IMG/VR virus record: IMGVR_UViG_3300031772_000004
Coordinates: 106,710-119,492 of that record
Length of the DNA stretch: 12,783 nucleotides
From: a virus
Taxonomy: Duplodnaviria > Heunggongvirae > Uroviricota > Caudoviricetes
Direction: 5' to 3' (one strand)
A program made the translations under genes and the position numbers. How positions within the stretch are numbered: the stretch's first letter is position 1; every line of letters begins with the position of its first letter. Below are positions 3,077-10,515 of this stretch, in pieces. The notes under the pieces were generated by a model. The model did not search any database. It saw nothing but the letters and a program-made list of their open reading frames with translations, and had not been told where the DNA came from.

Positions 3077-3748
3077 ATGAATGTTATTTCTCCCCCCAAT
3101 CGAAAATGTGAATATGGTTGTCTAATGGCAATAATTTCACCTAAAACCAGTAAAAATATTGTTAAATTTGGTAAAACCGCTATTCCTGACAAAAATTTGT
3201 ATATCGGGCCGCCTGAGGATGAATTAGGCAGAGACACAGAGCCACATGTTACTTTAAAGTTTGGATTTACTCCTGACTTAACCGAACCTCAGATTCTCAG
3301 CATAATCAAGGAATTAAATAAGCGTATAATCAAAGAATCGTTAAAAGAGATGGGTGGCAAATATGTTATCCGCGCAGGCGGTGGAAGTGGGACAAGAGAA
3401 CTTGAAGATGATGAGTTTAGAAGTAGTTTGCTATCAATGGAAGAAAATAAAAATAAGAAACCCACTTGGAAAATATATGCCGAAGGTATAACTATTTTTG
3501 ATAGCAAAAAAGAATATGATGTGGTAAAGTTTGATATAAAAAAAGACCCAATTCTTACTGAGATTCATTCTATATGTAATAGATACCCCAGCGTAAATAA
3601 GTATCCATCATATAACCCCCATATGACTATTGCTTATGTAAAAAAAGGTACTTTCCCACAAAGAGTATCACAAAAGAATATTCCCTTCAGCATTGCAAAC
3701 TTAAAATATTCTAGTATGGATGGTTCAAAACGCTACTACGATTTATAA
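3077..3748 (+). CDS. 2H phosphoesterase (2'-5' RNA ligase-like / T4 57B-Acb1-like) with an internal ~48-aa insertion
   Basis: Two HxT motifs, PHVTL (H57) and PHMTI (H182); N-terminal YGCLMA and C-terminal YNPHMTIAY resemble phage 2H proteins. Confidence 0.8.
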   Translation: MNVISPPNRKCEYGCLMAIISPKTSKNIVKFGKTAIPDKNLYIGPPEDELGRDTEPHVTLKFGFTPDLTEPQILSIIKELNKRIIKESLKEMGGKYVIRAGGGSGTRELEDDEFRSSLLSMEENKNKKPTWKIYAEGITIFDSKKEYDVVKFDIKKDPILTEIHSICNRYPSVNKYPSYNPHMTIAYVKKGTFPQRVSQKNIPFSIANLKYSSMDGSKRYYDL

Positions 3749-6200: not shown

Positions 6201-6452
6201 ATGACAAATATATTAAATAATACAGACAAGCCAAATGTTCGCGTTACTATAAATGATACCAGCGAAGTTATTTGTGAACAATGCAGTGGTAATACATTTA
6301 TAGAATCAGTTTTGCTGAGAAAGGTTAGCGCCTTACTTACAGGAGCAGAAAAAGATGCTTATATCCCAATACCTGTATTCTGTTGCGTTAAGTGTAATGG
6401 TGTGAATAGTGAATTCATTCCCCTTGAATTAAAAAACAAAATTGTAACCTAG
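6201..6452 (+). CDS. Small zinc-ribbon protein
   Basis: Two CxxC pairs (CEQC, CVKC) in 83 aa. Confidence 0.75.
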   Translation: MTNILNNTDKPNVRVTINDTSEVICEQCSGNTFIESVLLRKVSALLTGAEKDAYIPIPVFCCVKCNGVNSEFIPLELKNKIVT

Positions 6453-6527
6453 GGGTTGTAGCTTAATTGGTAAAGCACCACAATGGCATTGTGGGGAGTG
6501 AGGGTTCAAGTCCCTTCAACTCCACCA
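6452..6527 (+). tRNA. tRNA-Ala(GGC), 76 nt, CCA encoded
   Basis: Full cloverleaf: acceptor GGGGTTG/CAACTCC with the G3:U70 alanine determinant, D-arm GCTT/AAGC, anticodon stem CCACA/TGTGG with loop ATGGCAT (A32-U38 as in bacterial tRNA-Ala GGC), T-arm GAGGG-TTCAAGT-CCCTT, then A73 and CCA. Confidence 0.97.
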
Positions 6528-8037: not shown

Positions 8038-8066
8038 TTGACAATTTTACAATTCTCATATATATT
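8038..8066 (+). promoter_or_regulatory. Sigma70-like promoter TTGACA-N17-TATATT driving the RNA cassette
   Basis: TTGACA 8038-8043, TATATT 8061-8066; no plus-strand ORF follows, only structured non-coding sequence. Confidence 0.7.
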
Positions 8067-8070
8067 ATAG

Positions 8071-8185
8071 ATGTTGCATGCAAAGAAAAGTGATGCACCT
8101 ACGGTCAAAGGGGTGTAGATGCTTGGCGGACAACCGCTTAAGGGTTCGGACGACTGCCACAGGGGTACAACTCCCAACTAGACCA
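8071..8185 (+). ncRNA. Unidentified ~115-nt structured RNA ending in ACCA
   Basis: GC-rich island after the promoter, with hairpins GCGG-ACAA-CCGC, GCAcCTAC/GTAGaTGC and GGG-GTACAACT-CCC (T-loop-like), ending ...GACCA before an AT-rich spacer. Boundaries are inferred. Confidence 0.45.
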
Positions 8186-8202: not shown

Positions 8203-8559
8203 AAATAAATATAGTCGATTGTTCGCGGCAACAATAGAAATGGCTTAAACCCTCTGGCGTTAAAGGAAAGCAACACGCCTTTTTACAGTTTTTTACCTAT
8301 ACGGTGGCTGCACACTACCTGTCAACAGGCACAAGTAAAAACGAAACTTAGTTGCGAGTTGGCGGCGAGGACGAACCAACCTATTGTTGCTGAGGAAATT
8401 CGCGTCTGCACAACCTAATGTGGCAGGATAATTCCGCTATGACCACAGAAGCAGCAATCTAAATTAGCTTAGTGTGTCGGTTGCACAATAATAGCTTGGT
8501 TAGAGCTCAGTCAAATGAACGATTAGAAACAAAAACGCGGTTATGAGCTATATTTATTT
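8203..8559 (+). ncRNA. rnpB: RNase P RNA, variant lacking most of the S-domain and carrying a 143-nt P3 insertion
   Basis: CR-I GAGGAAATTCGCGTCTGC (8392-8409) and CR-V ACAAAAACGCGGTTAT (8529-8544) align without gaps to E. coli GAGGAAAGUCCGGGCUCC and ACAGAACCCGGCUUAU, with compensatory changes in P4. Helices: P1 8203-8214/8548-8559 (12 perfect bp), P2 8217-8224/8517-8524, P3 8228-8237/8381-8390 (10 perfect bp), P4 8397-8405/8535-8542 with the bulged U, P5 8406-8409/8451-8454. J5/15 CAA and a CR-IV-like AGTCAAATG are present. Confidence 0.88.
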
Positions 8560-8564
8560 AATGT

Positions 8565-8648
8565 GCCCGTGTATCGTCGCCGTTTCCTAAACGGTAGAAA
8601 CGTAAATGGAAATTGAAAATGCAGGTTCGATTCCTGTCTCGGGCGCCA
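8565..8648 (+). tRNA. Atypical tRNA-Arg(CCU)-like RNA, 84 nt: no canonical D-arm, 25-nt extra region, CCA encoded
   Basis: Acceptor GCCCGTG/CTCGGGC (one T-T mismatch), G73, CCA; T-arm GCAGG-TTCGATT-CCTGT; anticodon arm GCCGT-TTCCTAA-ACGGT; only 7 nt (TATCGTC) between the acceptor and anticodon stems. Confidence 0.75.
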
Positions 8649-9623: not shown

Positions 9624-10515
9624 TACTGATTTGAGATGTTCCTGTTCTTTGATTTTCGTTTTAAGGGCGGTATAGCGTCCTGATACTTCCGCAAGGGAGT
9701 ATTTAAGATAAACTGCAGTAATGCAGCCAAAGGGGTGAGTCCCAAGACTCTCCCGCCATTCAACTGGCCACCGATACAAAAGCAAGCTCTGTAAGCTTAT
9801 TTGGAAACAAATGAGATACATCTGAAGCTGGTTAGCAAACGAATCCGGTATGTGACGAACAGAAAGGTTCTAACTGTCACCCGACAGTTCTTACTAATGC
9901 CCACGCGGCAACAGTTAAGGTTAAGAGTTCAAGCGAAGTCGTTTAGTTCGAGCCTCGCAAGCAAGAGCTTAATGATAGATTGATAGAAAGTGGGCTGGGT
10001 TACTCTATGCACACAATCTTGAAAATCGGATGAGTACTCGCAAGGGAAAGTCAGGTGGTGTGTTGCATTCTGTAGCTGTAACAGGTTATGGAACAACTAG
10101 CAACGCACATCACACTTGGGTTTGACATAGCTCGATAGAGCGCTAGTATATTAAACTAGAGGTATGGCTTAACCGCCGTTCTCAATAAAATGCAAAGTCG
10201 TTGCTTCCGATAACGGAAAAAGTCTTAATTCTCTGCCCGCAAGGGAACAGAGACACTTGATTCTCGCAAGGATGATGGTGTCAGTACGGAGATTGACGGA
10301 GGGTGTCGCAGCTCTTACTGCTCGCAAGTCAGACGTTGGTTGAAATGCTGAATATGTTATCGGTAAACTTGAATCGCCTCAAGTATAAAAAGGCAGACCT
10401 GTTAAATACCTGATACGTTCCCAGCGGACGGTCAAGGTGGATAAGTGTGAAGGTATCTCGCAAGGATACGATAATACTTCAAGGTTAACATTTTAAGCTG
10501 TAGTCTCAGGCTTGA
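9624..10515 (+). ncRNA. Giant structured ncRNA (~890 nt), GOLLD/ROOL-like; exact family unconfirmed
   Basis: No credible ORF over about 1 kb in a gene-dense genome; visibly GC-richer than the flanks; seven C-GCAA-G tetraloop motifs (9690, 9956, 10039, 10238, 10265, 10323, 10459); further hairpins; long-range pairing TGAGATACA 9812-9820 with TGTAGTCTCA 10499-10508; own promoter. Ends are approximate. Confidence 0.75.

Follow-up and report, generated by a model that had tools for sequence, protein, structure and literature searches.

A 143-nt segment at the tip of helix P3 sets one phage-borne RNase P-like RNA apart from its relatives, and we give a probability of roughly 60% to the reading that this segment is a lineage-specific expansion segment, grown or inserted at the P3 apical loop of an RNase P RNA restricted to the catalytic domain. 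The RNA (8203-8559, 357 nt) is without a specificity (S) domain and lies in the window, that is, the whole 12,783-nt stretch analysed here, which is the final 12.8 kb of a viral contig in IMG/VR that measures 119.5 kb. The insert alone is a modest finding, and it would become far weightier if the domain conferred substrate or protein recognition; the underlying family of phage catalytic-domain-only RNase P RNAs is the more important object.

Architecture and setting of the RNase P-like RNA

The layout of 8203-8559 is that of an RNase P catalytic domain on the + strand, in which P1, P2 and P3 are nested at the 5' end and P2' and P1' return after P15. The 5' strand of P1 (8203-8214) is a 12-bp perfect complement to its 3' strand (8548-8559). 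The 5' strand of P2, AUUGUUCG (8218-8225), has both the position and the ...CG ending seen in the family, and it forms 8 bp, two G-U pairs included, with the 3' strand UGAACGAU (8516-8523). P3 follows with a 12-nt 5' strand (8226-8237), the first three nucleotides of which, CGG, are the family's P3 base, and with a 3' strand (8381-8392) whose last nucleotide, G8392, doubles as the first G of CR-I, GAGGAAAUUCGCG (8392-8404). CR-I includes the 5' strand of P4 (8397-8404, with U8400 bulged), and CR-V, ACAAAAACGCGGUUA (8529-8543), includes the 3' strand (8536-8542); together they form a P4 of 7 pairs, and the motifs are of the RNase P type, GAGGAAAGUCC-like and ACAGAA...GGCUUA-like. P5 (8406-8409/8451-8454) encloses a 41-nt stub (8410-8450) that replaces the S-domain and holds a 5-bp stem (8419-8423/8443-8447) plus a small hairpin, and the helices of the stub and of P5 covary across 75 sequences. 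The helices of a P15-like arm (8458-8504) likewise covary across the alignment; its loop, UCGGUUG (8477-8483), carries a GGU that would be expected, by analogy with bacterial RNase P, to pair with the 3' CCA of tRNA. With CR-I, CR-V, P4 and the 41-nt stub all found, the earlier note was right to describe an RNase P RNA that lacks the S-domain and carries a large domain where P3 lies.

Judging from the 46 core columns that are at least 95% conserved in the family, the focal RNA deviates at two, and these are the two sides of a single P4 pair, changed from G-C to A-U and hence compensatory. Because the core is intact and its sole deviation is this compensatory P4 pair, the ribozyme carrying the insert still looks constrained. 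The best Rfam model was the archaeal RF00373 (35.1 bits, E = 2.8e-8), which is below the gathering score of 84, and no candidate for RF00010 (bacterial type A) was found in the genome. The insert forces the RF00373 alignment into a wrong P1-P3, and it is the reason why standard covariance models mis-align or miss the gene.

The contig has a GC content of 32.7% and a completeness of 39% (CheckV), and it encodes a T4-type family B DNA polymerase; the closest DNA polymerase in the collections is 44% identical, which means that no near relative of the phage is present there. Relatives of a neighbouring methyltransferase, sought in IMG/VR, were not found. The ribozyme lies in a non-coding stretch of ~660 nt, where the order is promoter-like site, GC-rich segment, RNase P-like RNA and tRNA-like gene. 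The sigma-70-like promoter candidate (8038-8066, + strand; TTGACA-17-TATATT) agrees with 11 of 12 consensus letters, and it is a consensus match only. Between it and the ribozyme is a GC-rich (52%), RNA-like segment of ~115 nt (8071-8185) that ends in ACCA. The tRNA-like gene (8565-8648) starts 5 nt past the P1 helix of the ribozyme and has a T-run behind it; recognisable in it are an acceptor stem, T-arm, encoded CCA and an anticodon loop with CCU, but a normal D-arm is lacking, and the gene was missed by ARAGORN and gave a weak tRNA-Sec match in Rfam (21 bits). Elsewhere in the window are a tRNA-Ala (6452-6527) and a GOLLD RNA (10053-10512; Rfam RF02032, 183 bits, E = 1.4e-50), the latter 1.5 kb downstream of the RNase P-like RNA within a gene-free gap of ~1.1 kb. 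Near this RNA cluster, a 2H phosphoesterase/LigT-like protein with a weak Acb1 match is encoded at 3077-3748 and, on the opposite strand, a phosphoesterase (phrog_547) at 2106-2756; both genes are of an RNA-end or nucleotide-metabolism type.

This stretch is present in 15 public DNA runs from sediment or lake, and no RNA run was among those listed. In four low-share runs the contigs were identical to the window and of low depth, providing no microdiversity for covariation. A different family member comes from the same sediment sample (run X8, contig record 7): it aligns to window positions 8412-8458, agrees with the stub and P5 region but for 5 changes, and then continues into a P15 arm of its own.

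A phage RNase P RNA family with a variable P3

Relatives of the focal RNA were sought with a covariance model, R1, built from the contiguous core (8390-8548). A search of 50 related viral records with R1 returned one strong match (76 bits), in which P3 is nine bases long. A first, stricter CR-I/CR-V pattern gave no match; a pattern drawn from the motifs common to the first two members found 32 stretches in IMG/VR, 102 in metagenomes and 7 genome contigs, and part of what it matched in the last two sets is chance resemblance within coding DNA. R1 also matched each of the 32 viral stretches and, with few exceptions, the distinct metagenome sequences. A looser pattern, in which the P4 letters were left free, contributed 34 further R1-positive members, and the P4 variants among these (e.g., UUCAGG/CCUGG and UUCGGC/GCCGG) indicate that P4 itself covaries. 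Near-identical pattern matches in two Prevotella MAGs (L228 and L231) and a metagenome contig (L208) had no clean P2/P3 and an apparent 115-nt linker; they may be an aberrant relative or may have arisen by chance in coding DNA.

In the 75-sequence alignment, 96.3% of the cells pair and 23 of the 32 pairs have double (compensatory) changes; slid controls pair at 30-46%, a large margin even considering that the alignment was fitted to the model. P4, P5, P15, P2 and P3 all covary across the family, which comprises ~105 distinct relatives on viral and metagenome contigs (L093-L311), each ~190-210 nt long and restricted to the catalytic domain, many of them sitting directly between tRNA genes. Judged from these sequences, the family of phage catalytic-domain-only RNase P RNAs is real, and we found no published description of phage-encoded RNAs of this kind.

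We then compared P3 among the members, measuring its length in each distinct sequence as the distance from the P2 5' strand, located from its 3' partner, to GAGGAA; for four members (L137, L157, L284 and L288) the length was set by eye. P3 is usually a 3-8-bp hairpin of 8-24 nt, and it was no longer than 24 nt in 63 of the 72 distinct sequences in the first set. Among these 63 short helices, 50 are capped by a GNRA tetraloop, which in 34 is GAAA, and the commonest form is CUG-GAAA-CAG. The conservation of GNRA, mostly GAAA, at the tip of P3 hints at a tertiary contact. The stem itself covaries (CUG/CAG, CAG/CUG, CGG/CCG and CGG/CUG), and the CGG...CUG base of the focal P3 recurs in L125, L147 and L168.

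Larger versions of P3 are scattered in the family: about ten members have a P3 of 32-75 nt, and two alone exceed 100 nt, namely the focal RNA (166 nt, from P2 to GAGGAA) and L122 (~167 nt). L122 (1022-1195, - strand) lies on an unrelated viral contig, has a 9-bp closing stem and is directly followed by a tRNA-Thr. The large P3s have no significant similarity to one another, and the L122 insert cannot be aligned with the focal one. The focal insert is missing from every homologue found, including the nearest, although with a best DNA polymerase identity of 44% these are moderately distant rather than close. An alignment of homologues had been proposed as a check of the insert, and the insert's absence from the nearest relatives, together with the failed alignment to L122, speaks against its conservation, the first half of what the earlier note had set as refuting its reading. 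In a tree of the core (159 positions; poorly resolved), the focal RNA is on a long branch beside L156, L136 and L178, whose P3s are short (13, 14 and 9 nt, respectively), and L122 falls in another clade, in which P3 sizes are graded (15, 16, 46, 75 and 167 nt). Departures from the conserved core positions are also commoner in members whose P3 is enlarged (9 in L191, 5 in L115, and 4 each in L122 and L159).

Structure and content of the 143-nt insert

The perfect 10-bp stem described in the earlier note is present: GCAACAATAG (8228-8237) pairs with CTATTGTTGC (8381-8390) and encloses exactly 143 nt (8238-8380, + strand). Two additional pairs, G8227-U8391 and C8226-G8392, lengthen P3 to 12 bp (8226-8237/8381-8392), with pair probabilities of 0.84-1.0 in the thermodynamic ensemble. 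The position of this helix is that of P3 in the family, as it directly follows the P2 5' strand and the G that opens GAGGAA takes part in its last pair. Where the family has a GNRA tetraloop, the focal RNA has nine further base pairs and the 143-nt domain.

Inside the domain, one helix is robust in the ensemble, a GGCGU/ACGCC hairpin with a 14-nt A-rich loop (8256-8279, + strand; pair probabilities 0.90-0.97). All of the complementary words from which internal helices had been proposed do exist, and this helix is favoured, but the other four (a U-rich 8-bp helix, GUG/CAC, CCUG/CAGG and GUUGG/CCAAC) have ensemble probabilities of ~0-0.01. The earlier four-helix-type model has an energy of -32.6 kcal/mol, compared with -48.2 for the minimum free energy (MFE) fold, which instead has a different long imperfect hairpin at ~8319-8364. 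The stability of the fold is modestly above chance (z = -1.73, dinucleotide shuffles); mononucleotide shuffles gave z = -3.0, a value driven by the stem. The GC content of the insert is 46.2%, against 32.7% for the genome, which places it in the top 1.3% of 143-nt windows, and it resembles that of the nearby RNA genes. The raised GC content suggests a structured RNA, and it could equally mean a recent foreign origin. Since a perfect 10-bp stem and a folded, GC-rich content are unlikely to last in an old neutral insert, the insert likely either has some function or arose recently.

Searches for the identity of the insert gave largely negative results. A cmscan of 8226-8392 against all of Rfam, with E values up to 10, returned a single chance sRNA match (E = 3.1), and the insert region had no match to an RNase P S-domain, intron, riboswitch or tRNA-like model. 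With blastn against GenBank phages, neither the whole RNA region nor the insert had a match, and the core gave 30-nt chance matches. The insert has no ORF of at least 30 aa and none on the + strand; a small protein gene was rejected, there being just minus-strand frames of up to 29 aa with alternative start codons. No internal promoter was found on its + strand. We also rejected the ideas that the insert duplicates some segment of the ribozyme or the upstream RNA, for which local alignment scores were at or below the shuffle means, and that it is a MITE, as no other IMG/VR stretch has the same 10-nt termini 125-155 nt apart. Direct repeats of 27 nt (70% identity; 8377-8403, covering the P3 3' strand and CR-I, against 8411-8437 at the start of the stub) and of 12 nt (83%) were at chance level. 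In the upstream RNA that ends in ACCA, the 3' end (8168-8180) is complementary at 12 of 13 positions to 8349-8361 in the insert; guide-like pairing, in the manner of an external guide sequence, was nonetheless rejected, the 26-nt tail duplex having an energy of -16.6 kcal/mol against a shuffle mean of -17.1. Helix scores of the insert with the upstream RNA, the atypical tRNA, the tRNA-Ala and the ornate RNA were reached by 12-28 of 200 shuffles and are not significant.

Origin of the insert and comparison with known systems

Given its size, the insert had been taken as a possible relocated specificity domain, reading the tRNA elbow (T- and D-loops) instead of the lost P7-P14, a proposal that we now regard as highly improbable. 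Its length is indeed S-domain-like, and the words ACAG and GAAA flank a stem in it, which had been read as an echo of CR-II/CR-III. However, cmscan of the insert showed no S-domain similarity, and the ensemble gives practically no weight to the helices framing the echo (probability ~0); the CR-II/CR-III T-loop motifs are not reliably recognisable in one sequence, and it is the model search that gave no match. In bacterial RNase P, moreover, P3 points away from the elbow-binding site, and in the T. maritima holoenzyme-tRNA structure of Reiter et al. (2010) the P2/P3 stack reportedly lies on the leader and protein side; with this orientation, P3 would be poorly placed to read the elbow. The proposal also runs against the distribution of the two features: S-domain loss is family-wide, shared by ~105 members with a tiny P3, and the insert is unique to the focal sequence. 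Nearly all members combine the loss with a minute P3; the family therefore manages without either element, and whatever stands in for the S-domain across it cannot be the insert. That the insert brings the total to the normal length of an RNase P RNA is a coincidence.

Other readings grant the insert a role or an origin of its own. It is unlikely, in our estimate, to be a phage-specific accessory module that docks host RnpA or a phage protein, or that contacts the 5' leader or an upstream part of polycistronic precursors, although the GC enrichment, the perfectly kept 12-bp stem and the intact, constrained core would all fit such a module. P3 is also the protein-binding arm of eukaryotic RNase P/MRP (PMC4919922), and the repeated expansion of P3 in the family could reflect repeated recruitment. 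Against this, there is no conservation indicating selection, the expansions elsewhere in the family are non-homologous, and the complementarity to the upstream RNA, the atypical tRNA, the tRNA-Ala and the ornate RNA does not exceed that of shuffles. Genes for RnpA, L7Ae or an Alba-type protein did not turn up either in the 119-kb fragment, itself 39% complete: searches of it with PF01248 and PF00825 gave no match, and the one for PF01918 (Alba) was under the cut-off (12.8 bits) with a stop inside the match. Very unlikely, to our mind, is a newly evolved gain-of-function module that makes a new contact to co-transcribed, non-cloverleaf tRNA-like RNAs or to a protein; were it true, it would be a natural example of a ribozyme regaining substrate selectivity through a different helix. 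We consider it distinctly unlikely that the insert is a remnant of an intervening sequence (IVS) or mobile element, that is, foreign DNA in the P3 loop, possibly excised by RNase III without re-ligation, in which case the ribozyme may be a two-piece molecule held by P1, P2, P3 and P4. As in IVSs of the rRNA type, the insert is at a helix tip, sporadic among relatives and closed by a stem, and rRNA IVSs at the tips of 23S helices behave in this way (PMC4990558, PMC2801512); the distribution in the family is sporadic, large inserts at the same helix tip are non-homologous, the closing inverted repeat is perfect and the GC content is unlike that of the host genome. On the other side, a second copy was sought without success in the 119-kb genome, the 2 Mb of loci retrieved and the GenBank phages, no other IMG/VR element has the same terminal repeats, there is no ORF and no flanking direct repeat or target-site duplication, and a 12-bp stem is short for RNase III.

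The expansion segment at the P3 apical loop thus remains the reading that we prefer, and of the options raised in the earlier note it is best read as closest to the passenger RNA. In this family P3 varies from 9 to 167 nt, and its extra RNA lies at the tip of a helix, occurs sporadically, lacks homology between lineages and is closed by a stem; expansion segments and the IVSs of 23S rRNA behave in the same manner (PMC4990558, PMC2801512, PMC12974513). Under this explanation, the ribozyme would be transcribed together with the neighbouring RNAs from the promoter-like site at 8038-8066, and the 12-bp P3 would stack on P2 and keep the extra domain away from the active site, where the domain would be tolerated because the P3 tip is peripheral. 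Any function of the insert, such as extra folding stability or a binding platform, would be peculiar to this phage and would not be the family's means of doing without an S-domain.

At the P3 tip, this family accepts and gathers additional RNA (from 9 to ~167 nt) around a constrained catalytic core. The tip is a naturally permissive position at which a minimal RNase P could be given aptamers or tags, and the insert is a live case of expansion-segment growth in a ribozyme.

Among known RNase P RNAs, the minimal type T/P RNA of Thermoproteaceae (Pyrobaculum) is like the focal RNA in having kept the catalytic domain and lost nearly the whole specificity domain (Lai et al. 2010, cited in PMC4919922; PMC3579882). 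The Pyrobaculum RNA is, however, archaeal and cellular and its P3 is not enlarged, whereas the focal RNA is phage-borne and, at 35 bits against a gathering score of 84, not a member of the Rfam family. With bacterial type A (RF00010; E. coli M1 RNA) the focal RNA shares the order P1-P2-P3-P4-P5 ... P15 ... P2'-P4'-P1', as well as CR-I, CR-IV, CR-V, the bulged U in P4 and a GGU-bearing P15 loop. It differs from type A in having no recognised S-domain, P18 or P6, in the sequence of P4 (UUCGCG/CGCGG) and in P3, which is minute in the family and 166 nt long in the focal RNA.

The enlarged arm itself also has counterparts. In eukaryotic RNase P/MRP, the P3 helix-loop-helix bound by Pop6/Pop7 (Rpp20/Rpp25) is an enlarged peripheral arm like the focal P3 (PMC4919922, PMC4536320), but it is an internal-loop motif conserved throughout the eukaryotic members, whereas the focal enlargement is unique to one sequence, and in the focal fragment (39% complete) no gene of the Alba family (PF01918), the type of Pop6/Pop7, scored above the cut-off. 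The IVSs of 23S rRNA (helices 25 and 45) are 100-400 nt long, stem-closed, located at helix tips, sporadic and non-homologous between lineages, like the insert (PMC4990558, PMC2801512); in the present case, by contrast, the host RNA is a ribozyme and not an rRNA, and there is no ORF. Finally, in the accretion model (PMC12974513), the expansion segments described for rRNA and RNase P resemble the insert in that peripheral helices grow and the core is left undisturbed, the difference being that they are compared across the domains of life and the growth described here belongs to a single phage lineage.
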